A DNA stretch of 64,000 nucleotides, taken from positions 12,375 to 76,374 of the forward strand of contig CAZTGV010000004.1 in assembly GCA_964613475.1 (NCBI GenBank), in the 5' to 3' direction. Source of the stretch: an uncultured Gemmatimonadota bacterium (GTDB lineage Bacteria > Gemmatimonadota > Gemmatimonadetes > Palauibacterales > Palauibacteraceae). Below, piece by piece: positions 8,992-64,000 of this stretch; the stretch's first letter is position 1; every line of letters starts with the position of its first letter. A program made the position numbers and the translations under genes. A model generated the notes under the pieces. That model made no database searches, was not told where the DNA came from, and saw nothing but the letters and a program-made list of their open reading frames with translations.

Positions 8992-10842
8992 TCAGCCCTC
9001 CCCGCCCCGCGGCCCGCCGCCCGCCACCACCGGCCGTGCGCCGCCGGGGACGGCCGGCGCCAGCCCCTTCGCCACCACCGGCTTCTCCGCCAGGCCGCCG
9101 AGCCAGAAGATCAGCCCGACCAGCCCGAAGAAGAGGAGCACGCAGAGGCTGATCATGGTGGCCGCCGGGCCGAGGGCCGGGGTCGCGGCCTGCGCGCTCG
9201 TGTCTCGGATCACCTCCCAGACGTGCCAGTGCTGCCGGATCCCGCTCCGCGCGAAGCCCATCAGCCCCATCAGCCAGGTGAAGGTGACCGCGAGGATGAA
9301 GAGGGCGTACTGGGAGCGCGCCGGCATCTCCCCCCAGCGGATCGGACCACGCGACCGGGCGCCGCGCAGCATCGCGATGTCGATCCCGAGGACGAACAGG
9401 ATGGTCGCGAGCACGGCCAGCACCTGATAGACGCTGAAGCCGATCCGGACGATCGCGGTCACGAAGTAACCGTAGATCCCGTAGAAGAGCACCACGGCCG
9501 CCGCCAGGACGAAGGCCGCGCCCTGGGCCGTCGTGCCGGCGCGCGCCCAGGACACCGTCGGCTCCTTGTTCGCCCGGCGGTACATCATGAACGAGAGGAA
9601 GGTGGTGAGGATCATCAGGTTCACGGCCGTGTTCTTCGCGCTCATCACGCCGAGGACCCCGAGGAAGGGATGGTGCGTCCCGCCCATGGCCGCGATCTCG
9701 TCGCGTCCCGCGATCATCGTGTGCGGCGTCGCCCACACGATGACCCCGAGGACGAGCACGGCCAGCATCCACTTCACGTAGGGCTCGAAGCGCTCGCCGC
9801 CCGGGATCCGCCCGAAGCCGACCCACAGGTAGTAGTTGCCGGCGAGGAAGAGGACGCCGATGAGGAAGGCCTGGATGATCCAGAGCCAGCTCATGAAGCC
9901 GCCCATCATGGTGATCCCCATCGACTGGTCGTACTCGTAGATCTCCCGCCCCAGCCAGTAGCCGGCGAAGGGGAGCACGATCAGGAAACCGATGGCGATG
10001 AAGTTCCCCGTATAGCCCATCCAGTCGTAGTGGGCCCGCTCCTCCCGCGTCCGCGCGGCCAGGAAGCGGTAGGCGGCGTAGGCGCCCACGATCGCGCCGC
10101 CGAACACGACGTTCGCCAGCAGCCGGTGGATGTTGATCGGCATCCAGGTCGCGTTGGCGATCGCGGTCCACAGGCCGATCTCGGCGGCCGCGGTCTCGGG
10201 GGTCATCCCCTCCGGCGGGCTCATCATGTAGGTGAGCCAGGAGTTCGCGATGAACATCACCAGGGTGCCCCACACGTTCAGCGCCACTCCGAGCCCGAGG
10301 TGGACGCCCTTCGCCATGCCCTCCTTCCACTGCTCCCACCCGTAGTAGTAGAGGTAGAGCGTGAAGGACTCCACGAAGAAAAGGCCCGCGTACGCCCACA
10401 TGGAGGGGGCGAAGATCTCGGTCAGGTGCCGCCAGAAGGTGGGGTACAGGGTGGAGAGGAAGAAGACGAGCACGGCGCCCCAGATGGCCGTCGCCGAGTA
10501 GGCCACCAGCAGGAGCCGCGTGAATTCCTTGGCCAGCTTGTCGTAGCGCTCCTGCTTCGTGAAGTGGCCGACCGCCTCGACCACGACCGCGAACATCGGC
10601 ACGCCGAGCACGAAGGCGGCGAAGAGCAGGTGGAGCTGCGCCGCGATCCACACGGCGCCCCGCGGGCCGACGAGCGGAAACTCGCCGTAGTCCATCGCCG
10701 CTTCCTGCGCGCCGGCCGGGACGGCCAGGAGCGCGGCGAGGGCCGCGGCCGCCCCGAGGGCGAGGGCCGCGCGCGCCGCGGCCCGTCGGCTCCCGCCCGC
10801 CTTCCGCCCGGGGATCGCGGCCCGCCCGGCGCGGGGGCTCAC
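8992..10842 (-). CDS. cytochrome bd subunit I (CydA)-like membrane protein, no adjacent cydB
   Basis: Helix 1 reads AAQLHLLFAAFVLGVPMF, comparable to E. coli CydA YHFLFVPLTLG. The protein is polytopic. The GTG at 10842 forms a GTGA overlap with the radical SAM stop and adds a signal-like RRAAARAALALGAAAALAALLAVPAGAQ. An alternative start is the ATG at 10695 (MDYGEF). The ORF-track extension up to 12060 overlaps the radical SAM gene and is rejected. Confidence 0.8.
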   Translation of the reverse strand: MSPRAGRAAIPGRKAGGSRRAAARAALALGAAAALAALLAVPAGAQEAAMDYGEFPLVGPRGAVWIAAQLHLLFAAFVLGVPMFAVVVEAVGHFTKQERYDKLAKEFTRLLLVAYSATAIWGAVLVFFLSTLYPTFWRHLTEIFAPSMWAYAGLFFVESFTLYLYYYGWEQWKEGMAKGVHLGLGVALNVWGTLVMFIANSWLTYMMSPPEGMTPETAAAEIGLWTAIANATWMPINIHRLLANVVFGGAIVGAYAAYRFLAARTREERAHYDWMGYTGNFIAIGFLIVLPFAGYWLGREIYEYDQSMGITMMGGFMSWLWIIQAFLIGVLFLAGNYYLWVGFGRIPGGERFEPYVKWMLAVLVLGVIVWATPHTMIAGRDEIAAMGGTHHPFLGVLGVMSAKNTAVNLMILTTFLSFMMYRRANKEPTVSWARAGTTAQGAAFVLAAAVVLFYGIYGYFVTAIVRIGFSVYQVLAVLATILFVLGIDIAMLRGARSRGPIRWGEMPARSQYALFILAVTFTWLMGLMGFARSGIRQHWHVWEVIRDTSAQAATPALGPAATMISLCVLLFFGLVGLIFWLGGLAEKPVVAKGLAPAVPGGARPVVAGGGPRGGEG

Positions 10843-12221
10843 GCCTCGTCCTCCCCCGCCCGGGCGAAGAAGGGAAGCCGCCGCGAGAAGTCCACGGGCA
10901 GCGCGCGGCGCACCTCGGCCATCACCTCCGGCGTGACCCGCTCGTAGCCCCGCTCGCGGGCGAACGCCTCCACCCGCCCCGCCACGACGCCGCGCACGAA
11001 CGAGGGAATCCCCTCCAGCCGCGCCTCCGCCTCGGGCGACCAGGAGAGCTCGCGCCGCGCCGGGTCCCCGTAGCGGAGCCTCCGGGCCGGACGCACGGGC
11101 GGCCGCATCCCCTCGGGCTCGTACGCGCAGGAGGGGTCCGGCCCGAGCGGGTCGCCGTCCACCGCGTACGCGCGGGCCCGGCAGCCGCCGCACACCTCCC
11201 GGTACTCGCAGCGCCCGCACTTCCCGCCCAGGGAGCCCTCCCGCAGGAGCCGGAAGAGGCGGCTGTCGCGCCAGATGTCGGAGAAGGACGCCTTCGCCAG
11301 GTCTCCGGCCACCGCGGGCAGGTAGGGACAGGGGGTGACCTTCCCCTCCGGGGTGATCCGGCAATACTGCACGCCGCACGGGCAGCGCGTCCGGTAGTGC
11401 AGCAGGGGCGACTCCGGGTCGCGCTCGAAGACGTGGCGCATGAGCTGGGGCTGGCACTTGGACCGGATCATGAGCCGACCGCGCCAGGCGCGCTGGAGCT
11501 CCACGAGCTCCCGGAGGACCTCGTCGTTCTCCTCCGGCGCCAGCCCCCGCATGCCGGCGCCGCGCCCGGTCTCGACCAGGAAGTAGACGTTCACGCACAC
11601 CGCGCCGGCCGAGGCCGCCCAGCCGACGATCGAGCCGAGCTCGTCCCGGTTGCCACGGGTGAGGCTCGTCTGGACGAGGAAGTCCAGCTTCCGCATCCGC
11701 AGGCGCTCCACGGCCGCCAACGTGTCCGCCAGGGCCCCATCGCCGTGCCGGAAGCGGTCGTGGTAGCGGGGGTCGAGCGAGTCGATGCTCAGCGCCACCC
11801 CGCGCACGCCTGCCTCCTTGAGCGAGGCGATCCGGGCGTCGGTGAGCCGGGTGCCGTTCGTCCCGACCACCACGGTGGCGCCGCCGCCGCTCGCCCGCGC
11901 GGCGATCGTCTCCAGGTCCTCGCGCAGGAGCGGCTCGCCGCCGCTCAGGATGAGGAGGACCGCCGGGTTGGCCGCCAGGACCTGGTCCACCACCTCCAAC
12001 GCGCGGGCGGTGTCCAGCTCCCCGGCGGCGGTGTGCCAGGCCCCGGCCGAGATGTAGCAATGGGCACAGGCCAGGTTGCAGCGTCGGGTGAGGTTCCAGG
12101 CGATGACGTGCGGGACCGCGGCCGCATCGGCGCCGGAACGCTCCGCCGTCCGGGACTCCCGCAGCCGGGCCGCGAGCCCCCGCGACGCCAGGGCCGCCCC
12201 CGCGTCCCTCGCGCCCCTCAC
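10839..12221 (-). CDS. radical SAM/SPASM enzyme (NirJ/AhbC/AhbD-like) with C-terminal PCP_red-like domain
   Basis: GTG at 12221 forms a GTGA overlap with the upstream stop. Radical SAM cluster motif CNLACAHC. SPASM cysteines CPCGVQYC...CPYL...GKCGRCEYREVCGGCRARAY. C-terminal segment WSPEAEARLEGIPSFVRGVVAGRVEAFARERGYERVTPEVM. Confidence 0.85.
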   Translation of the reverse strand: MRGARDAGAALASRGLAARLRESRTAERSGADAAAVPHVIAWNLTRRCNLACAHCYISAGAWHTAAGELDTARALEVVDQVLAANPAVLLILSGGEPLLREDLETIAARASGGGATVVVGTNGTRLTDARIASLKEAGVRGVALSIDSLDPRYHDRFRHGDGALADTLAAVERLRMRKLDFLVQTSLTRGNRDELGSIVGWAASAGAVCVNVYFLVETGRGAGMRGLAPEENDEVLRELVELQRAWRGRLMIRSKCQPQLMRHVFERDPESPLLHYRTRCPCGVQYCRITPEGKVTPCPYLPAVAGDLAKASFSDIWRDSRLFRLLREGSLGGKCGRCEYREVCGGCRARAYAVDGDPLGPDPSCAYEPEGMRPPVRPARRLRYGDPARRELSWSPEAEARLEGIPSFVRGVVAGRVEAFARERGYERVTPEVMAEVRRALPVDFSRRLPFFARAGEDEA

Positions 12222-23960: not shown

Positions 23961-24056
23961 TGGCGGGAACGTGTGGGAATCGAACCCACCCGGGACGCTC
24001 ACGCGCCCCGCGCTCGCTTTGAAGGCGAGGAGCGACACCAGTCGCCATCCGCTCCC
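23961..24056 (-). tRNA. selC: tRNA-Sec (anticodon UCA)
   Basis: The 96-nt minus-strand sequence is GGGAGCGGATGGCGACTGGTGTCGCTCCTCGCCTTCAAAGCGAGCGCGGGGCGCGTGAGCGTCCCGGGTGGGTTCGATTCCCACACGTTCCCGCCA. Anticodon loop CUUCAAA. 6-bp D stem with a 4-nt loop. 7-bp variable arm. TTCGATT T loop. The CCA end is encoded. The 3' half closely resembles E. coli selC as I recall it. Confidence 0.9.
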
Positions 24057-29139: not shown

Positions 29140-29143
29140 AAAG

Positions 29144-29506
29144 TGGAGGCGGCGGGAATCGAACCCGCGTCCGCGAGCCCATCCGCTACAGGTCCTACGT
29201 GCGTAGCCTGCGCTTCGTGTCTCGCCGGCGACGGGTCCGCAGGCGACCCGCTTCCGGCCAGCCGCGTTCGGCTTTCGCCATCTCGCCGACGACGTCCGCG
29301 GCGGACGTCGACGGCCAGCCCGATTCATCGTCGCCTCCCACCCCGCCTCGGGCCGGGCCGAGCGGAAGACGGGCTACGTCAGATTACGCAGCCAGCGCCA
29401 AGTTGTCGTTGGCAGCTATGATGGTTCCCGGTGTTTTACGAGGTACCCGAGCACCTCGGCACGCACCCGCGGCTTCCGGTTCACGCGTCGAAGCCGTGTC
29501 GCCCCC
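29144..29506 (-). ncRNA. ssrA: tmRNA (transfer-messenger RNA)
   Basis: 5' end GGGGGCGACACGGCTTCGACGCG. 3' end GGGTTCGATTCCCGCCGCCTCCA. The acceptor stem has a G3:U pair. The tag reading frame GCT GCC AAC GAC AAC TTG GCG CTG GCT GCG TAA spans 29416-29384 and encodes AANDNLALAA. The terminal CCA is not fully encoded. Confidence 0.9.
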
Positions 29507-41104: not shown

Positions 41105-41300
41105 TCACGGGCACGGACGGGCACGTCTCCTGGCTCGAGGCGCCGCAGCGGCCGGCCTTCCAGGGACCCCGCGAGCGGGGCGCCCCGTGGCATCGGGGAC
41201 CGCTGCTTCCCGGCGTTCGACGCCGGACCTCTCACAGTGGCGGGGCCGCGTCGGGTTCGCACCGACTTCCGTTTGGCCCCGTCCGTGTCTGTCGAGGAAA
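41105..41300 (-). promoter_or_regulatory. cobalamin (B12) riboswitch
   Basis: The minus strand reads ACGGAAGTCGGTGCGAACCCGACGCGGCCCCGCCACTGTGAG (GCCACTG at 41241-235). The B12 box GCCAGGAGACGTGCC is at 41134-120. P1-like pairing CACGGACGGGG ... CCCGTCCGTG. It lies immediately upstream of the binding-protein gene. Confidence 0.85.
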
Positions 41301-41346
41301 CCTTAGGGGAGGTCGCCGCCCCGCCGCAAGACGTCGGCCGCGCGGC

Positions 41347-55616: not shown

Positions 55617-56686
55617 CCCGCGGCGGCCCCCGCCGCGCCGAGGCCCTCCAGGCGCACGGACCCGGAGCCTCGCGTCAGCTCGCCGCACGTCCAGGCGGGG
55701 CAGCCGGCGCTCCGCACGTCGCGGAGCACCGCGGCTTCGTCCCCGGACCGCACGACCGCGATCATCCCGACCCCCATGTTGAAGGTCCGGAACATCTCCC
55801 AGTCCGAAGCCCCGCTCGCTTCCGCCAGGAAGCGGAACTCGGCCGGTGGCTCCCAGCTCAACGCGTCCACCACCGCGTCCAGCTCCGGCGGCAGCACCCG
55901 GTCCAGGTTGCCCGGGATCCCGCCCCCGGTGATGTGGGCCAGGGCGCGCACGCGGCCGGCCGCGCAGGGCTCGCGGAGGGGCACCAGATAGGAGCGATGC
56001 GGCCGCAGGAGCACCTCGGCCACCGTGCCTCCGGTGCCGGGAAGCGCGTCGTCCACCGCCATCCCGAGCCGCTCGAAGATCAGCTTGCGTACGAAGCTGT
56101 ACCCGTTCGTATGAAGCCCGTTCGAGGCGAGGCCGATCAGCCGATCGCCGACCTCCAGCCCCCGGCGGGCCACCGCGTCGAAGGCGTGTCGGCCGACGAT
56201 GAAGCCCGCCAGGTCGTACTCTCCCGGCGCGTACAGGTCCGGCATCTCGGCCGTCTCTCCCCCGAGCAGGGCGCACCCGTTCTCGCGGCAGGCGCGGGCC
56301 ACTCCGGACACGACCTGGAGCGCGACCTCCGGCTCCAGCCGGCCAGTGGCGAAGTAGTCGAGGAAGACGAGCGGCAGCGCGCCCTCGGCCAGCAGGTCGT
56401 CCACGCAGTGGTTGACCAGGTCCTCGCCGATCGTCTCGTGCCGGCCCGCCCGGAAGGCGACCTTGAGCTTGGTCCCGACCCCGTCGGCGCTGGCCACGAG
56501 CTCGGTCCCGGGCGGGGCGGCGAAGCGGCCGCCGAAGGACCCGAAGGCGGAGCGAACCGCGTCGGTGCGGGTGGAGGCCACCAGCTCGGCGAGGCGCGCC
56601 TTGACCGTCGCGGCGGCCGTGCGGTCCACCCCGGCGTCGCGATACGTGAGCCCGGCGGGACCGGGCCGGGGCCCGGCCCCGCTCAT
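55613..56686 (-). CDS. purM: phosphoribosylformylglycinamidine cyclo-ligase (AIR synthetase)
   Basis: LTYRDAGVD...DGVGTK...DLVNHCVDDLLAEGA.PLVFLDY...GGETAEMP. Confidence 0.9.
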   Translation of the reverse strand: MSGAGPRPGPAGLTYRDAGVDRTAAATVKARLAELVASTRTDAVRSAFGSFGGRFAAPPGTELVASADGVGTKLKVAFRAGRHETIGEDLVNHCVDDLLAEGALPLVFLDYFATGRLEPEVALQVVSGVARACRENGCALLGGETAEMPDLYAPGEYDLAGFIVGRHAFDAVARRGLEVGDRLIGLASNGLHTNGYSFVRKLIFERLGMAVDDALPGTGGTVAEVLLRPHRSYLVPLREPCAAGRVRALAHITGGGIPGNLDRVLPPELDAVVDALSWEPPAEFRFLAEASGASDWEMFRTFNMGVGMIAVVRSGDEAAVLRDVRSAGCPAWTCGELTRGSGSVRLEGLGAAGAAAG

Positions 56687-58941
56687 TCCCGCGCCGACTC
56701 CGAGAGCGACGGCTCCACCGGCTCGGAAGCGGGGGCGGCGCCGGCGCCGTTCTCCGGATCGGAGTCGGCCGCGCCGGGCCCGGCCGGGCCGCGGGCTTCG
56801 GACCGGGCCACCAGCCCGCTCCGCGCGCTCTCGATCAGCACGCGGCGGGTCTGCTCGTCCACGCTCCCCGGATCCGCTCGCACCGGAAGCTCCACCGTGA
56901 AGGTGGAGCCCTCGCCGACCGCGCTCTGGAGGGAGATGCTCCCCCCCAGCAGGGCGAGGAGCTTGCGGCTGATGGACAGCCCGAGGCCCGTGCCGCCGTA
57001 CTCACGGGTCGGCGACTGGTCCGCCTGGCGGAAGTCCTCGAAGATCACCTCGCGGTCCGCGGGCCCGATGCCGATGCCGGTGTCCTCGACCTCGAAGCGG
57101 AGCCGGTCGCCCTCGACGCGGGTCCGCAGCGCCACCCACCCCTCGGGCGTGTACTTGAGCGCGTTCTCGAGCAGGTTTAACAGAACCTGCCGCAGCTTGG
57201 TCGCATCGGTGCGAACCGTGGGGAGCCCGTCCTCGAGCTCCACCCGGAAGTCGAGCCCCTTCTCGTCGAACAGCGGCCCGAGCGCGTTCGCCACTTCGGT
57301 GACGAGCTCCTCGACCCGGAGCTCGGCGAGCCGCACCGGCATCTTCCCCGCCTCGATCTTGGAGAGGTCCAGGATCTCGCTGATCAGGGTGAGCAGGTGC
57401 TCCGAGGCGCTCCGGATCTTCTCCAGCGCCTTCCCCTGCTCCGCGGACGGATCCCCGTAGATGCCCTCCCGGAGGAGCGAGGTGTAGCCGAGCATCGCGT
57501 TGATCGGGGTCCGCAGCTCGTGGCTCATGCGGGCCAGGAATTCGCTCTTGAGGCGCGATGCCTTCTCCAGCTCCTGGCTCTGCCAGACCAGGAGCCGGTT
57601 CCGCTCCGCCAGCTCCGCCGTCGCGACCTCGATCCGCTCCTCCAGCTTTTCGTTCAGGCTCCGGAGCTCCTCGGCCAGGCGCTCGTTCTCCCGCTCCTGG
57701 GTCAGGTCGCGCAGCACCGTCACGACCGCCACGGGCTCGTCCAGCCGGCCCAGGATCTTCGTGTTCACCGCCTCCACCGGGATCGAGCCGCCGGTGGCCG
57801 GGTCGGTGAGCGACAGCCGCTCCTCCCGCCGCACCCGGCCCTGCAGCAGGAACTCGTTCACCAGGCTCGTGAAGCGGGTCACGTTCGCCCACAGGCGGCG
57901 GCGCCGCTCTCCCTCCGAGAGTCCCTCCGGCAGGTCGAACAGCCGCTCGGCCTCCGCGTTCATCAGGACGATGTTCGACTGCCCATCGGTGACCAGGATC
58001 GGCTCGGCCGCGTTTTCGATGATCGCGTTCAGCCGCTGCGTCTCCCTCCGGGCCCGGTGCTCGGCCGCGCGCGAGCGCCGGTACTCGAGGTCCAGCTCGT
58101 TCACCGCCCGCTTCAGGTCCGTGATGTCGCGAAGGACGGAGATCACGTGGCCGCCCTCGCTCCCCTCCGGCCGGAACGCCGTGGTGAGCACCTCGAACAG
58201 CAGGTCGGAGCCGTCGGTGGGATCCACCAGGTTGAGCTCCCGGCTGGCGCCGGCCTCCCCGGCCATCCGCTCCTGCGTGAGGAAGGCGCTGAACAGAAAG
58301 GTGTTCGTGCGTACCGCCCGCGCCCGCCCCACGCTGTCGCCCGGCTGGGAAGTGAAGAGGTCCATCGCGCGGCGGTTCGCCACCACGATGTCGTTGCGCG
58401 CGTCGGTCAGGATGACCGGATCGACCAGCTCGTCCTGGATGCGGGCCAGCAGCGCGCGCTCCCGCCCCAGCCGCTCGGCCCGCGCGCGCAGCCGCTCCGA
58501 CCGGCGCAGGCGGTGCAGCGCCGGCCCGCAGCGCTGGATCGCTCGCCCGAGGCGTTGCGCCTCCTCGTCCAGCGCCTCGGCGCGCAGCAGGACGCCGCCG
58601 AGCGGGACGTCCCGACCATCGGCGAAGGGGAGGACCACGCACGGGTCGAACGGCAGCGAGCCCTTCGAGGCCCCGGACAGGAGGACGGGCTCGGCGTCTC
58701 CGAGGGCGCGAGAGAGGCTCTGGGACTCCACCTCCACCGGCCCGGGCCGGGCGTCCGACTCGCCGACGGCCCCGTGCAGCTCCCAGCCACCCTCGCGCCG
58801 CCGCAGGGCCACCGCCCCCCGGCGGAACGGACCGCGGGTCAGCGCGGTGGCGAGCAGCACGGTCACGGCCTCCCGGATTCCCGACGCGCGGGAGATCTCC
58901 TCCAGGAGCTCGGCGACCAGCCGGTCCTCCGGGTCGCTCAT
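56683..58941 (-). CDS. soluble multi-sensor histidine kinase (GAF + PAS domains, HisKA, HATPase_c), no receiver
   Basis: H box SHELRTPINAMLGYTSLL, N box LLNLLENALKYT, G boxes DTGIGI and GGTGLGLSISRKL. No obvious TM helix. It starts 24 nt after the gvpA stop and forms an ATGA overlap with purM. Confidence 0.85.
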   Translation of the reverse strand: MSDPEDRLVAELLEEISRASGIREAVTVLLATALTRGPFRRGAVALRRREGGWELHGAVGESDARPGPVEVESQSLSRALGDAEPVLLSGASKGSLPFDPCVVLPFADGRDVPLGGVLLRAEALDEEAQRLGRAIQRCGPALHRLRRSERLRARAERLGRERALLARIQDELVDPVILTDARNDIVVANRRAMDLFTSQPGDSVGRARAVRTNTFLFSAFLTQERMAGEAGASRELNLVDPTDGSDLLFEVLTTAFRPEGSEGGHVISVLRDITDLKRAVNELDLEYRRSRAAEHRARRETQRLNAIIENAAEPILVTDGQSNIVLMNAEAERLFDLPEGLSEGERRRRLWANVTRFTSLVNEFLLQGRVRREERLSLTDPATGGSIPVEAVNTKILGRLDEPVAVVTVLRDLTQERENERLAEELRSLNEKLEERIEVATAELAERNRLLVWQSQELEKASRLKSEFLARMSHELRTPINAMLGYTSLLREGIYGDPSAEQGKALEKIRSASEHLLTLISEILDLSKIEAGKMPVRLAELRVEELVTEVANALGPLFDEKGLDFRVELEDGLPTVRTDATKLRQVLLNLLENALKYTPEGWVALRTRVEGDRLRFEVEDTGIGIGPADREVIFEDFRQADQSPTREYGGTGLGLSISRKLLALLGGSISLQSAVGEGSTFTVELPVRADPGSVDEQTRRVLIESARSGLVARSEARGPAGPGAADSDPENGAGAAPASEPVEPSLSESARE

Positions 58942-58965: not shown

Positions 58966-59253
58966 CTAGGACTCTTCCCGCATCCGCCGCTCCAGCGTGG
59001 CGAGCCGCGATTCCAGCTCCACGGCATCCGCCGCGCCGAGCGCCGGCCGGGACACCGTCCCGATCGCGCTGATCGAGTCGGCGTACTTCAGATACGTCTC
59101 CACCGAGGCGACCACGATGCGCGCCTCGACGCTCACCAGGTCGATCCCGACCAGGCTCACGCGCACGTACGCGTCGATCACGATCCCCTTGTCCAGGACC
59201 CGATCGAGGACATCGATCAGGCTGGTTCCTGCGGGCGCTCTCTCGACCGCCAT
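58966..59253 (-). CDS. gvpA: gas vesicle structural protein GvpA
   Basis: [48 protein letters not shown] is almost identical in pattern to canonical GvpA. RBS GGAGGAGG. It carries a C-terminal extension of about 25 aa. Confidence 0.9.
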
Positions 59254-59269: not shown

Positions 59270-59623
59270 CTATTCGCCGGCGCTTCCGCCGGGCTTCCGG
59301 GAGCGCTCGATCGCCTCGAGCCGGGCTCCGAGCGACGCCATCTGCTCTTCCAGCCCGCCGATCGCCTCCCGGCGCGCCGCGCCGCTGCTCAGACTCGGAT
59401 CGCTCCGCCACCAGTCCAGCCCGATCTCCTGGGCCTTGTCGATCGAGCACACGAGCAGCCGGATGCGGATCGTGAGCAGCTCGACATCGGCCAGCCCCAC
59501 GCGGATGTCGCCCGCGATGACCAGCCCCTTCTCCAGAATACGGTCCAATACGTCCACGAGGCTCTGGCCCCGCGTGGACGGCCCGAGATCGCGTCTCGTC
59601 GCCACCGTGGTCCTCTCGTCCAT
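59270..59623 (-). CDS. gvpJ: gas vesicle protein GvpJ (GvpA/J/M family)
   Basis: [52 protein letters not shown]. Confidence 0.85.
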
Positions 59624-59657: not shown

Positions 59658-59939
59658 CTAGAGCAGCCCGCGGAGCGGGCCGAGGTCCAGCCGGAGGTCC
59701 CGATCCTCCAGGCCGAACGCGTCTTTCAGCTCGTCCATCCGCTGGCGCAGGCGGAGGAAGGCCTGACCGAGGCGCTCCACCTCCTCCTCGCTCAGCGAGC
59801 CCGACTCCATGCGCCCGACCGCCTGCCGCTCGAGCACCTGCCGCAGCAGCTCGAGGACGGTGAGCACCAGCTGCGCGAGTCCCCGGTCCAGGTCCTCACG
59901 CTCCAGGTCCAGCCGCTCGGGGAGCGTCGCGCCGCTCAT
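59658..59939 (-). CDS. gvpK: gas vesicle protein GvpK
   Basis: ATG at 59939 forms an ATGA overlap. LDRGLAQLVLTVLELLRQVLERQAVGRMESGSLSEEEVERLGQAF. Confidence 0.8.
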   Translation of the reverse strand: MSGATLPERLDLEREDLDRGLAQLVLTVLELLRQVLERQAVGRMESGSLSEEEVERLGQAFLRLRQRMDELKDAFGLEDRDLRLDLGPLRGLL

Positions 59940-60664
59940 CCGGCGAACGAGTACGGGGGCGACGGGCCGTCGATCACGATCCGCAGCTCGGAGCGGCCGG
60001 CGCGCCAGGCTCTGGCCGACGCCGCGTACGCCTCCGCGTCCGGCCGCTTCACCAGATGGGCGATGGTGGCCGTCCGCGCTCCGGCGTCCGGGACGTCCAC
60101 CCGCTCGTCGCGCACGAGCGGCCCGACCCGCTCCCGCAGCTCCTCCGCCAGGTGGCGCCCCCACTCCAGGGCCTCCCGCTCGGCGCGCTCGCGCCGGGCG
60201 AGCGATTCCAGGTACGCGCGGCCCGCCCCCGGCTCCCGCTCCGCTCGGTCCGGGCCGCCATCGCGCCGCCCGCTCCCGTTCGAGGAGGGCTCGCGCGCGG
60301 CCGGACCCGACGTCCCGGAGGCCGCCCGGACCGCGATCGCGAACTCGACCGCCCCGCGCACCGCCTCCAGCCGCGTCCGGTAACGCTCCCGATCCTCGAG
60401 GAGGCGGTTCACGAGCGCCTCCCCGGTGGCGAACCACTGGCCGAACCGGGCGGGGAGCGGCGTCGCGTCGCCACCGGCCGCATCCCGCACCACCCGATCG
60501 TGGGCGCGCACCCGGTCGAGCGACGGGCTCGGCCGCACCGGGAGCTCCGAGACGAGCGCGCGGAGAGGCCCCGACCTCAACACGCGAACCGGCGAGCCGT
60601 CGACGCCGGGCGCGCTCCCGGCCGCCAGCCCGGGAGGGCCGACCGCGTACAGGTACCAGCCCAT
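59936..60664 (-). CDS. gvpL: gas vesicle protein, GvpL/GvpF family
   Basis: MGWYLYAV... N-terminus, VLPARFG-like (PLPARFG) and C-terminal GPSPPYSF. Confidence 0.8.
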   Translation of the reverse strand: MGWYLYAVGPPGLAAGSAPGVDGSPVRVLRSGPLRALVSELPVRPSPSLDRVRAHDRVVRDAAGGDATPLPARFGQWFATGEALVNRLLEDRERYRTRLEAVRGAVEFAIAVRAASGTSGPAAREPSSNGSGRRDGGPDRAEREPGAGRAYLESLARRERAEREALEWGRHLAEELRERVGPLVRDERVDVPDAGARTATIAHLVKRPDAEAYAASARAWRAGRSELRIVIDGPSPPYSFAG

Positions 60665-60921
60665 CAGCCGGCCGTCTCTCCGAACGGCCCGGCCGGAGGC
60701 CGCGCGGCGGCGCGCTGCAGCGTCTCGACCGAGGAGAGCACCAGGTCGAGCCCGAGGTACAGCAGATCGACCCCCGCCACGCCGATCACCACCTCGCCGG
60801 TCACCACGACTCCGCGGTCCAGCACGCGGCTTACCAGAGCGGCCAGGGCCATCTCCTCGTCGGCCGGGGCGGCCGACCGCCGCCGCTCAACCGGCGCGCG
60901 GGTGATCCGGTCCATCCTCAT
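60664..60921 (-). CDS. gvpS: small gas vesicle protein of the GvpA/J/S family (GvpS-like)
   Basis: LAALVSRVLDRGVVVTGEVVIGVAGVDLLYLGLDLVLSSVETL. The start may instead be the ATG at 60852, which avoids a 35-nt overlap with gvpF. Confidence 0.75.
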   Translation of the reverse strand: MRMDRITRAPVERRRSAAPADEEMALAALVSRVLDRGVVVTGEVVIGVAGVDLLYLGLDLVLSSVETLQRAAARPPAGPFGETAG

Positions 60922-61717
60922 CCGATCCTTCCATGAACCGATAGGGCGCCCAGGGACCCGAGAAGGCGACCCGGAGACCCACCGCTTCGAGGTCCGGTGT
61001 CCGCGCCTCCACGTCGCTCCGCAGCGCCGCCTCCTGGTCTTCCGGTACGAGCAAAGCCGCGTTCAGGACCACGGGCAGGTCCGCGGCATCGGTCGGCGCC
61101 TCCAGGAGCCGCGCCGCGTCCGTGCGCGGGCGCAGCGCGTCCAGCAGCTCCCGGGCGAGCCGGCGGGCGCTCGCGACCGACTCCTCGTGCAGGATACGGG
61201 CGCGCTTACGCTCCAGCAAATAGCGCGTCCCGGGCGCCGCGGCGTCGATCCGCGCGTCCAGCTCGGCGACCTCGTCGGACAGCTCCGGGAGCCGGGCGGC
61301 GATCTCGTCCGCGTCGTAGCTCACCTTGAGGTCCCACTCCCGGCGCCCGCGCAGGCGCGCCAGCTCCGCGCGGATCGTCGCGTCCCGCGCCTCGACGTCG
61401 CGCGCCAGGCGCTCCAGCGAGCTGTACAGGGTGAGGAGGCGCGCGGGGAGGATGGTGGTCGCGTCCACGAAGCGGTTGATCACCCCCTCGTGGCGAAGGC
61501 CCTGCTCGGCCACCCAGTCCAGGTCCGTAAGCTTCGGGCGCACGGCCTCCGCTTCGTAGCGCTCCGCCGGAACCCGGCCGATGGCGGCGGCGAAGGCCCC
61601 GAGCTCCACCACCTCGACCGGCCGGTCCGCCACCCCGCGCAGGTCGGAGGGCGGATGAGTGCCGCTCGGCAGGAAGCCGTACAGGTAGATCACGTCCGTC
61701 ACCGCTCCCTCCTCCAC
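60887..61717 (-). CDS. gvpF: gas vesicle protein, GvpF/GvpL family
   Basis: VIYLYGFLP..., TTILPARLLTLY, and C-terminal SGPWAPYRF. Confidence 0.8.
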   Translation of the reverse strand: MEEGAVTDVIYLYGFLPSGTHPPSDLRGVADRPVEVVELGAFAAAIGRVPAERYEAEAVRPKLTDLDWVAEQGLRHEGVINRFVDATTILPARLLTLYSSLERLARDVEARDATIRAELARLRGRREWDLKVSYDADEIAARLPELSDEVAELDARIDAAAPGTRYLLERKRARILHEESVASARRLARELLDALRPRTDAARLLEAPTDAADLPVVLNAALLVPEDQEAALRSDVEARTPDLEAVGLRVAFSGPWAPYRFMEGSDEDGPDHPRAG

Positions 61718-61748: not shown

Positions 61749-63662
61749 TCACGCCACCCGCCTCCACGCCCCCGCGAACGCCCGGAGAGCCCCGGGGCCG
61801 GCGGGGGGCGGCATCTGGTCCGGGGCGGCCAGGACCGGGGCCTCCGCCGCCCGGCAGGCGGAGAGCTCGGCCCCCATCCGCACCGCCTCGGCGGCCGAGG
61901 TCCGGTTCCAGATCAGGCCGGCGAGGGGGACTCCTGCACGGACCAGGCCGTCGCACAACCGCCGGGTCTCGGAGACCACCATCGGCTCGGGCAGGGTCAC
62001 GGGCACCGCGCCGGTCCGGCCCGGGTCCGCCAGCGCCTCCCGGAAGGCGCGGATCCGCCGGGCGAGGCGCAGCAGCCGCTCCGCCGGCTCGCGCAGCCCC
62101 ACCACCTCTCGGTACTTGAGCACCAGCCGCATCAGGGCGTGGATCCAGCCGAGCGCCACCTCCGGCGCCTCGAGGAAGCGGAAGAAGTGCCCGGTCGGCG
62201 CCGCGTCCAGCACGAGCACGTCCTCGGCGTCCGCCTCCGCCAGGAGCGCGAGCGCGGCCAGTTCGTCCAGGCCGGGCGGGGCCAACTCCAGAAAGCGCTC
62301 CAGCACCTCGCGGTCCAGCGTGGCCCCGCCCGCCAGCCCGACGCCGGCCGCCACCGCCTCGACGTCGGAGCGGCTGCGCTCCCGGAAGGCGCGTAGCTCG
62401 GCCTCGGGCTCCACCTGCCGGACGAGCAGCCGCTCCCCCACCCGCACGCCGTCCCGGCCCACGGGCCGACCGAGCAGGTCGCCGATCGAGCCCGCCGGAT
62501 CCACCCCGACCAGGAGGACGGAGGAGGATGCGGAGAGCGCCAGGGCGCAGGCGGTGGCGCAGGTGGTCTTCCCGACCCCGCCCTTGCCGACGAACAGGAG
62601 CCGCTCGCGCCCGCCGAGCAAGAGCCCTGCGGCGCTTGGCTTCGCCGCGCCCGCCGCCCGCTCCCGCCTCGCGCCCTGCCCGGAACCGCGTCCCGCGGTC
62701 GTCCGCCGCGGCGCCGCCTTCGGGCCCGCGCCGAAGGCCGGATGGGGCGCCGTCCGCCAGCCGTCGCCCCACGCGCGAAGCGCCGCGCAGCCCGCGCGGG
62801 CACCCGCGGGCGCGGCGAACGCCGGGGCTCCGCCGTCTCCGCTGCCCTCCGAAGCCCCCAGAGCGCCGGCGGCCGCGGCCCGCGACGCCGGCGCGCCCGT
62901 CCCCTCGGACCCGACCCGCACCGTGGCGGCGAGCCGGAGGCCGCGCGCCCGGAGCGCCCCGGCGAGCCGGGCCGATTCCTTCCGCACGGCCGGCTCCCCG
63001 CGCCACGTCAGCACCCAGGCCGCGCGGTCCAGGAAGCGCTCGTACGCCCTCCGCTCCGCCGCCAGGTCGTCCAGGAAGTCCTCCGAGGCCAGGCGCACCG
63101 GGCCGCCGGCGAAGCTGGAGGCCACGACGGTCGCCTTGCGGGCCAGGGCGCCGAGCCACGTCTCCCAACCGCGGAGGAGCGCGCCCGCCTCGAGCAGCCG
63201 GAGCGCGTGGCCGGTGGGGGCGGTGTCGACGACCAGGCGGAGGCCCTCCCGTCGAGCCAGGGCCGCGAGCCGGCGCGCCCCCATCCACTCGTCCGCCCCC
63301 GGCAGGGCGCGGCCGAGGATGTCCTCGATGTCCTCGTCGTCCAGGTAGGTCCCGCGGTCGAGGAGTTCCCGGAGGGGCTCCCGGGCCCCCTCCAGCCAGC
63401 CGGCGAGCGCCGCGGTGGCGTCGAAGGCCTCCAACCGGAGGTCGGCCGCGCACTCGCACGCCACGGGCTCCCCCGACGGCACCGGCTGTCCGAACAGGTC
63501 TCCCAGGGAATGGGCCGGATCCAGCGAGAGGAGATGGGTGGGCTCGCCGCGGTCGGCGAACGAGAGGGCGAGCGCGCCCGCGGTCGTGGTCTTTCCCACC
63601 CCGCCCTTCCCGACGACGACCACGGGTCGATCGCCGGCCGCCTCGAGCAGCCGGGGGATCAC
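61749..63662 (-). CDS. tandem (pseudo-dimeric) ArsA/Get3-family ATPase embedded in the gas-vesicle operon
   Basis: GTG at 63662 forms a GTGA overlap with the gvpG stop. There are two halves. Each has a deviant Walker A (VVVVGKGGVGKTT, LLFVGKGGVGKTT), an SLDPAHS/GVDPAGS segment and the ArsA signature (VVDTAPTGHALRLL, VLDAAPTGHFFRFL). The halves are joined by an Ala/Gly-rich linker. Confidence 0.8.
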   Translation of the reverse strand: MIPRLLEAAGDRPVVVVGKGGVGKTTTAGALALSFADRGEPTHLLSLDPAHSLGDLFGQPVPSGEPVACECAADLRLEAFDATAALAGWLEGAREPLRELLDRGTYLDDEDIEDILGRALPGADEWMGARRLAALARREGLRLVVDTAPTGHALRLLEAGALLRGWETWLGALARKATVVASSFAGGPVRLASEDFLDDLAAERRAYERFLDRAAWVLTWRGEPAVRKESARLAGALRARGLRLAATVRVGSEGTGAPASRAAAAGALGASEGSGDGGAPAFAAPAGARAGCAALRAWGDGWRTAPHPAFGAGPKAAPRRTTAGRGSGQGARRERAAGAAKPSAAGLLLGGRERLLFVGKGGVGKTTCATACALALSASSSVLLVGVDPAGSIGDLLGRPVGRDGVRVGERLLVRQVEPEAELRAFRERSRSDVEAVAAGVGLAGGATLDREVLERFLELAPPGLDELAALALLAEADAEDVLVLDAAPTGHFFRFLEAPEVALGWIHALMRLVLKYREVVGLREPAERLLRLARRIRAFREALADPGRTGAVPVTLPEPMVVSETRRLCDGLVRAGVPLAGLIWNRTSAAEAVRMGAELSACRAAEAPVLAAPDQMPPPAGPGALRAFAGAWRRVA

Positions 63663-64000
63663 TCCGGCGGCGCCGGTCGCCTCCCGGAGTCCCCGCCCGA
63701 CACCGTCCCGTCTCCCCGCTCCGGGGTATCCGCATCGGCGGGCGGCTCCCCCGCCGCGCCGGGACCGCCCTCCATGCCCAGGACGCCGCCCGCGCCCGGA
63801 AGGCCGAGGCGGCGCCGCCACTCGCGCGTCTCCCGCAGCCGGCGCATCAGCTCGGCCTCGCGCTCCACGTACGTCTCCTCATCGATCTCGCCCAGCTCGA
63901 GTCGGAGCTGGAGCTCGAGCAGCTTCTCGCGCACGGCCGCGTCGTCCGCCACCTCGCGGAGCGCCGCGTCCCGCGTCTGGCGGAGCGAGAAGCCGAGCAG
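63659..64000 (-). CDS. gvpG: gas vesicle protein GvpG, partial (5' end beyond window)
   Basis: The frame is open to the window edge. ...LREVADDAAVREKLLELQLRLELGEIDEETYVEREAELMRRL matches the GvpG helical motif. A Gly/Pro-rich tail follows. Confidence 0.75.
   Translation of the reverse strand: MLGFSLRQTRDAALREVADDAAVREKLLELQLRLELGEIDEETYVEREAELMRRLRETREWRRRLGLPGAGGVLGMEGGPGAAGEPPADADTPERGDGTVSGGDSGRRPAPPE

Follow-up and report, generated by a model that had tools for sequence, protein, structure and literature searches.

The tandem ATPase encoded in the gas vesicle (gvp) cluster of an uncultured Gemmatimonadota bacterium is, with high probability, dedicated to that cluster and not to arsenic. 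Its gene (61749..63662, minus strand, as are all features below) lies near the end of a 64,000-nucleotide stretch of contig CAZTGV010000004.1 (assembly GCA_964613475.1), hereafter the window, and its product of 637 amino acids has the ArsA/Get3 fold. As the preliminary description of this DNA had anticipated, the gene is a genuine part of the gvp cluster, because the protein lacks the ArsA cysteines, there are no ars neighbours and the synteny with gvp genes recurs in at least about 27 loci. On balance, we favour the view that the protein is a dedicated accessory ATPase of gas vesicle assembly, coupled to GvpG by overlapping stop and start codons and possibly working by a Get3-like mechanism.

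Two-domain ArsA homologues in the gvp operons of several phyla have already been reported (Castillo & Saier, 2010; PMC2963123). The preliminary description, which knew of no ArsA-family gene described as a gvp component, was therefore wrong on this point, since that survey described exactly such genes, with examples from Polaribacter, Pelodictyon, Geobacter uraniireducens, Anabaena/Nostoc and an acidobacterium. Its authors also pointed out that the cysteines and arsR are lacking, and they suggested that the ATPase powers a step in gas vesicle biogenesis distinct from that of GvpN. Their Cluster 4 homologues average 637 amino acids, and the gvp-associated members of Clusters 4 and 6 share with the window ATPase the tandem form of ~600-645 residues, the location in a gvp operon and the absence of arsR and of the ArsA cysteines. 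For the acidobacterium they list L/F, J, K and M and no N, which matches the cluster of the window (PMC2963123). The window ATPase differs in belonging to the Gemmatimonadota, a phylum outside that survey, and its subclade differs in three conserved cysteines peculiar to it (C71, C292 and C368) and in having lost the adenine-contact asparagine of the N-terminal half. New here are the Gemmatimonadota members, the adjacency of gvpG and the ArsA-like gene, the division into GvpN-less and GvpN-containing cluster types, and the motif pair PGxDE versus PCTxE as a discriminator.

Architecture and family of the tandem ATPase

The ATPase belongs to the ArsA/Get3/TRC40 superfamily by curated score cutoffs, by motifs and by fold. 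Pfam ArsA_ATPase (PF02374), the profile that the preliminary description had suggested as a check, matches it in two stretches (E=2.9e-60, 204.5 bits against a cutoff of 24.3 bits), and TIGR00345 (GET3_arsA_TRC40) gives 213 bits against a cutoff of 135 bits. The two ArsA-like halves and the motifs proposed from the first reading of the DNA are borne out by sequence, Pfam and structure prediction. Each half has an intact P-loop, an intact switch I (DPAHS / DPAGS) and an intact switch II. The deviant Walker A motif GKGGVGKTT occupies residues 18-26 in the N-terminal half (63585..63611), where it is invariant in 114 homologues, and residues 359-367 in the C-terminal half (62562..62588); switch II reads DTAPTGH at residues 146-152 (63207..63227) and DAAPTGH at residues 486-492 (62187..62207). 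Overall, Walker A, switch I and switch II are invariant or nearly so among the 114 homologues. An AlphaFold2 model built with these homologues (mean predicted local distance difference test, pLDDT, 87.8; predicted template modelling score, pTM, 0.89) is nearest to the closed, ATP-bound conformation of ArsA: the top Foldseek match is the closed ArsA of Leptospirillum ferriphilum (9nbw; template modelling score 0.64 normalised to the query, TMq, and 0.71 to the target, TMt), and the next full-length matches are E. coli ArsA (1ii0) and Chlamydomonas ArsA1 (5zme). By sequence, the best match in the PDB is the latter protein, the tail-anchor targeting factor CrArsA1 (5zme, E=3.7e-38), and E. coli ArsA follows with 2.3e-24. 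The two halves are joined by a region at residues ~251-343 (62634..62912), whose Ala/Gly/Arg-rich flanks are gap-rich in the alignment and modelled with pLDDT <50 at residues 254-261, 266-275 and 325-335; residues 281-305 in between are confidently predicted as a strand and a helix, which carries C292.

The GTG start codon at 63662 overlaps the stop codon of gvpG in the sequence GTGA (63659-63662), as first described. This start is supported because an identical 637-residue protein is already on record (P0001), because the homologues begin at the same position in the alignment (MIPA.LLE...), and because the longer upstream extension of the open reading frame (ORF), to 63821, falls within gvpG. 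The possibility of a spurious ORF, considered in view of the ~75% GC content of the window, is ruled out by the homologues, the conserved motifs and the confidently modelled fold.

The protein is not an arsenite-pump ATPase, since it scores 122.2 bits on the ArsA equivalog model TIGR04291 against a cutoff of 650 bits, carries PGxDE at the cysteine positions and has no ars genes nearby. For comparison, true ArsAs were represented by phmmer alignments to PDB entries and by Chloroflexi ArsAs from the genome scan described below. The metalloid-binding residues C113, C172 and C422 of E. coli ArsA (1f48) align to L458, K516 and G122 of the ATPase, so that all three cysteines of the triad, which the preliminary description had wished to see checked, are absent. 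PGADE at residues 121-125 (63288..63302), a motif of the Get3 type, stands at the metalloid-cysteine position of ArsA (PC-T-xE), as seen both in the phmmer alignment to 1f48 and in the multiple alignment, and its counterpart in the C-terminal half is PGLDE at residues 463-467 (62262..62276). Both align to SPGIDE of the archaeal TRC40 protein 3zq6 and to PPGLDE of CrArsA1 (5zme). The cysteines of the ATPase are residues 69, 71, 292, 368, 372, 570 and 603, and neither helical subdomain contains any. Near the gene, and in the loci of relatives examined, there is no arsR, arsD, arsB, arsC or acr3. The expectation of no arsR, B, C or D nearby thus held, the neighbours being gvp genes, a histidine kinase and purM.

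Gas vesicle synteny and cluster types

Genome contigs were scanned with generic Walker A patterns, which yielded at least 80 loci, a sample and not a census. These loci were typed by tblastn with the Gvp proteins of the window, by gene-order maps and by translating the gaps between gvpF and the ArsA-like gene. The gvpF-gvpG-arsA module recurs in at least about 27 gvp loci from about eight phyla, which answers positively the earlier suggestion that gvp clusters be surveyed for co-occurring ArsA-like genes. All best-scoring genomic homologues listed sit in gvp clusters (L002-L020, L022, L023, L027-L029, L031 and L035, plus L082-L084), and the taxa concerned are Longimicrobiales, Gemmatimonadaceae, Thermoanaerobaculia, Bryobacteraceae, Terriglobales, Acidobacteriia, Verrucomicrobiota, Hydrogenedentes, Brocadiaceae, Planctomycetota, Rokubacteria, Thiohalocapsa (Gammaproteobacteria) and deltaproteobacteria. 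Lower-scoring matches listed without gvp genes are Chloroflexi ArsAs, archaeal and deltaproteobacterial single-domain homologues, and Nocardia proteins. The ATPase gene directly follows gvpF-gvpG in every listed locus that has upstream sequence and an unrearranged cluster; the exceptions are three Terriglobia-type loci (L020, L027 and L029), where F and G lie ~6 kb downstream or were not detected. In the gene calls of the relatives, the ATPase gene overlaps the gvpF downstream of it by 1 or 4 nucleotides, and on the other side it overlaps gvpG or is separated from it by 6 nucleotides. The clade is sizeable, as a phmmer search against 1.84 billion representative sequences returned 431 clusters (50% identity) at E<=1e-30. 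No match was found by tblastn among the plasmids of PLSDB at E<=1e-10.

The motif at the metalloid-cysteine position follows genomic context. All gvp-linked homologues listed have LPGxDE and PPGxDE, whereas the nine non-gvp tandem homologues have GPCTAEV and SPCTEEM, with the metalloid cysteines of ArsA (26:0 versus 0:9 for the tandem homologues among the loci listed, Fisher p=1.4e-8); none of the cysteine-bearing tandem homologues from the same scan has gvp genes among the loci listed. The gvp-linked proteins group apart from the cysteine-bearing ArsAs when 38 tandem homologues are placed in a neighbour-joining tree, which is distance-based and carries no support values. One could nonetheless argue that the window protein is a genuine arsenite-pump ArsA that merely happens to lie beside gvp genes, given that databases name it 'arsenite-transporting ATPase', that its top structural matches are crystal and cryo-electron microscopy structures of ArsA, and that it has the tandem architecture of ArsA. 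This is hardly credible: the equivalog score, the three missing cysteines and the missing ars neighbours contradict it, and so does the synteny with gvpG conserved across phyla. Moreover, the cysteine-bearing homologues listed are without gvp genes, and the one that was checked, in Chloroflexia (L030), lies in an arsR-arsD-arsA operon; its ArsA reaches 488.8 bits on PF02374 versus 204.5 for the ATPase. At that locus (9143-11896) the three ars genes are followed by two genes of the YlbF/YmcA family.

The distinction has a practical side. Annotations routinely give genes of the gvp-linked class the name 'arsenite-transporting ATPase' and place them among the arsenic-resistance genes; PGxDE versus PCTxE separates them cleanly from true ArsA. 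A case in point is nsp15480 of Nodularia spumigena CCY9414, which lies beside gvpA1A2CNJKLFGVW (nsp15380-15470) and was tabulated as an arsenate-related 'ArsA' (PMC3610870); it is probably a misfiled gvp-associated homologue.

The clusters fall into two types. Type I has the order F-G-ArsA-F-A'-L-K-J-A, with no gvpN within +-10 kb among the loci listed, and occurs in the window and in Gemmatimonadota, Thermoanaerobaculia, Terriglobia, Rokubacteria and Planctomycetota. Type II has the order A...N...F-G-ArsA-A-K-A and holds GvpN and an ArsA homologue together, in at least seven loci. In the neighbour-joining tree the type-II ArsA homologues form one clade, and the two cluster types have different ArsA subclades. 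GvpN, an AAA+ protein of the MoxR type, is like the ATPase a nucleoside triphosphatase (NTPase) of gvp clusters presumed to energise assembly, with a fold unrelated to that of the ATPase. Three GvpN probes gave no tblastn match over the full 64 kb of the window, in agreement with the first impression that none is visible in the cluster. Since gvpN is missing from the window and from +-10 kb around the type-I relatives listed, the ATPase is the only NTPase of the type-I operon in this lineage. As a side observation, in seven loci (L010, L011, L012, L015, L016, L019 and L022) gvpN is followed by a ~1-kb gap before gvpF that matches no probe; this gap of ~900-1100 bp upstream of gvpF-gvpG-arsA in type-II clusters may hold another conserved gene.

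Candidate role in gas vesicle assembly

How the ATPase might serve gas vesicle assembly can be approached by analogy. Its PGxDE motifs, its larger hydrophobic helical subdomains and CrArsA1 as its best match suggest a Get3-like chaperoning or delivery of GvpA/J/S; compared with true ArsAs, the four segments of its helical subdomains have 5-12 additional residues and a higher content of MLIFVW. We put forward such a mechanism, acting on hydrophobic clients, tentatively. The ATPase would be co-expressed with GvpG through the overlapping stop and start codons. ATP binding would close the two halves, as in Get3 and ArsA, and in the closed state the enlarged hydrophobic helical subdomains would form a composite binding site that holds a hydrophobic Gvp segment instead of a metalloid. 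The client could be a shell protein of the GvpA family or the N-terminus of GvpG, which is hydrophobic; hydrolysis or the binding of a partner would then reopen the ATPase and set the client free where the vesicle grows. GvpG, with its hydrophobic N-terminus and long charged helix, is the prime candidate partner because of these features and of the invariable pairing of the two genes, and we speculate that it could be either a client or a release factor comparable to Get1. Going further, ATPase and GvpG could be a prokaryotic delivery pair of the Get3/Get1 kind and the sole energy source for shell growth in the GvpN-less operons (Gemmatimonadota, Acidobacteriota and others). In such a pair, the hydrophobic face of GvpA-family proteins would be covered by the ATPase, and GvpG at the vesicle would pry the latter open and so trigger insertion. 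We regard this extended version as improbable. If true, it would amount to a GET-like pathway that serves a protein-shelled, lipid-free organelle.

Comparison with the named members of the superfamily shows where the analogy stands. ArsA (E. coli R773, 1f48/1ii0; L. ferriphilum, 9nbw) has the same tandem pseudo-dimer fold (TMq 0.54-0.64) and, in both halves, the same deviant Walker A and DTAPTGH, but it has the C113/C172/C422 metalloid site and an ars operon, and the ATPase has neither. CrArsA1 (5zme/5zmf), a tandem protein of the Get3 type, shares the fusion, PG(L/V)DE in both halves and the lack of metalloid cysteines; it differs in sequence (~23% identity), superposes poorly over its whole length (root-mean-square deviation 14-17 A) and occurs in another context, as the ATPase is part of a prokaryotic gvp operon without a known tail-anchored client. 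Finally, the monomer of Get3/TRC40 (2woj, 4xtr; archaeal 3zq6, 3ug6) matches each half of the ATPase (TMt ~0.65-0.72), and PGxDE, the DPAHS switch I and the DTAPTGH switch II are shared. However, Get3 is a zinc-bridged homodimer, whereas the halves of the ATPase are fused, as in CrArsA1, and the ATPase lies in a context without GET receptor genes.

Several observations weigh against an accessory assembly ATPase with a Get3-like mechanism. Gvp proteins are not tail-anchored. In Foldseek, the overall structural likeness of ArsA structures to the ATPase exceeds that of Get3. The ATPase has no CxxC motif, which speaks against a strict analogy to Get3, and its region after switch II is ~11 residues shorter than in CrArsA1 and 14 shorter than in archaeal TRC40 (counted as gap positions), so that the TRC40-type lid appears to be absent. 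The adenine-contact asparagine of the N-terminal half ('VNxx') is replaced by V/T-G in the Longimicrobiales-like subclade, to which the window protein belongs, and with this loss one of the two sites may be catalytically impaired. To our knowledge, the clusters of Bacillus megaterium, Halobacterium and Serratia, as well as heterologously expressed Anabaena genes, give vesicles without an ArsA homologue, and the protein therefore cannot be universally essential. Type-I clusters, known here from their genes, are putative vesicle producers. Full-text literature searches returned no further paper linking gvp with ArsA or Get3, and no experiment on any member.

An alternative is that the ATPase replaces GvpN and drives shell growth from bicones to cylinders, without being a chaperone. 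This idea fits the lack of gvpN in the window and within 10 kb on either side of the type-I loci listed, where an ArsA homologue is always present, and it also fits the different ArsA subclades of GvpN-less and GvpN-containing clusters. The preliminary description had likewise considered that the protein might substitute for GvpN; the absence of gvpN from the window agrees with this, but the proposal is weakened by the at least seven related clusters that carry both proteins, in which the two cannot be interchangeable. The folds also differ (SIMIBI for the ATPase, AAA+ for GvpN), gvpN could lie elsewhere in the type-I genomes, the search having covered the window and +-10 kb, and, as far as we know, actinomycete gvp clusters lack both GvpN and an ArsA homologue. 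Altogether we consider replacement of GvpN rather unlikely. A positioning ATPase like ParA or MinD, which would keep the vesicles spaced or segregated, or a regulator of gvp expression like the haloarchaeal P-loop protein GvpD, is a still more remote prospect. It would be in line with the SIMIBI class of the protein, with weak matches to the ParA, MinD and CbiA models and with the sensor kinases and sigma-54 regulators that flank the clusters. These matches, however, cover ~40 residues round the P-loop, far under the cutoffs, and a ParA/MinD type was rejected as the primary reading because they involve the P-loop only. In addition, a fused pseudo-dimer would rule out the ATP-dependent dimerisation cycle of ParA/MinD, no DNA-binding or membrane-targeting element was noticed in the protein, and the gene is placed among the assembly genes (F-G-...-L-K-J), away from the regulators.

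The subclade of the window protein deserves separate mention. Among the 114 sequences of this Longimicrobiales-like group, the window included, each of C71, C292 and C368 is kept in 113 or 114, and the residues flagged in it are 71, 250, 292 and 368; the other gvp-linked subclades listed keep the adenine-contact asparagine and are without the three cysteines. The sequences suggest that the N-terminal nucleotide site has been remodelled and is possibly not equivalent to the other one; alternatively, they suggest a specific thiol or metal site in this subclade. An alternative metal site formed by C71, C292 and C368 was also considered for the function of the clade as a whole and discarded: restricted to one subclade, these residues cannot explain it.

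Gas vesicles serve as genetically encoded reporters for ultrasound and magnetic resonance imaging. An ATPase of the Get3/ArsA type paired with GvpG is a neglected candidate for the step that keeps the very hydrophobic GvpA soluble and inserts it into the shell, and the type-I clusters offer a small system for asking if GvpN is dispensable.

Operon and surroundings in the window

The operon comprises nine genes in the order gvpF-gvpG-arsA-gvpF-gvpA-like-gvpL-gvpK-gvpJ-gvpA. Its beginning lies outside the window, which holds the 3' part of gvpG (63659..64000; Pfam GvpG, E=3e-10). That the cluster continues past 64000, as first assumed, is borne out by the 5.4-kb Logan contig L001, which adds 860 bp with the rest of gvpG (463-864 on L001, 133 amino acids in full) and the C-terminus of another gvpF. 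Look-ups with the histidine kinase and with PurM gave no record. Operon content further than 860 bp beyond 64000 is inferred from the relatives, in which the operon starts with the gvpF upstream of gvpG. The ATPase gene is directly followed by a gvpF/L paralogue (60887..61717; Pfam GvpL_GvpF, E=1.2e-49). The distance of 31 nucleotides originally given between the ATPase stop and this gvpF holds for its longest ORF (GTG 61717), but not for the start chosen by gene callers (GTG 61702), which lies 46 nucleotides from the stop and has GGAGGAGGGAG just before it. There follow a small GvpA-family protein of 85 amino acids resembling GvpM/S (60664..60921; Pfam Gas_vesicle, E=3.2e-10), a second gvpL/F paralogue (59936..60664; GvpL_GvpF, E=1e-39), gvpK (59658..59939; Pfam GvpK, E=1.2e-30), a gvpJ-like member of the GvpA family with 117 amino acids (59270..59623; Gas_vesicle, E=8e-17) and, as last gvp gene of the operon, gvpA (58966..59253, 95 amino acids; Gas_vesicle, E=7.1e-16). 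We read the latter as the core of a canonical GvpA, lengthened at its C-terminus by ~25 residues (the usual GvpA having ~70), and its final position is the same in type-I relatives.

A sensor kinase of 752 amino acids with the Pfam architecture PAS-PAS-HisKA-HATPase (56683..58941) begins 25 nucleotides after gvpA, an arrangement also found in L083 and L084, and is probably co-transcribed with the cluster or regulates it. Around L082 there are other kinases or response regulators of the sigma-54 type, and the operons of L082 and L083 have regulators on both sides. The sensor kinase may be a dedicated regulator of the type-I cluster. No ars gene occurs over the 9 kb downstream; besides the histidine kinase, this part has purM and one more large ORF, presumed to be ribD. 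The PurM protein is most similar to those of Gemmatimonadota/Palauibacterales (65-72% identity), which places the source among high-GC Gemmatimonadota genomes.

Elsewhere in the window, Rfam models identify a transfer-messenger RNA gene (29141-29506; RF00023, 140.9 bits), a cobalamin riboswitch (41120-41302; RF00174, 48.7 bits) and a selenocysteine transfer RNA (23965-24056; RF01852, 75.6 bits), the last of which implies selenoprotein synthesis in this Gemmatimonadota genome.

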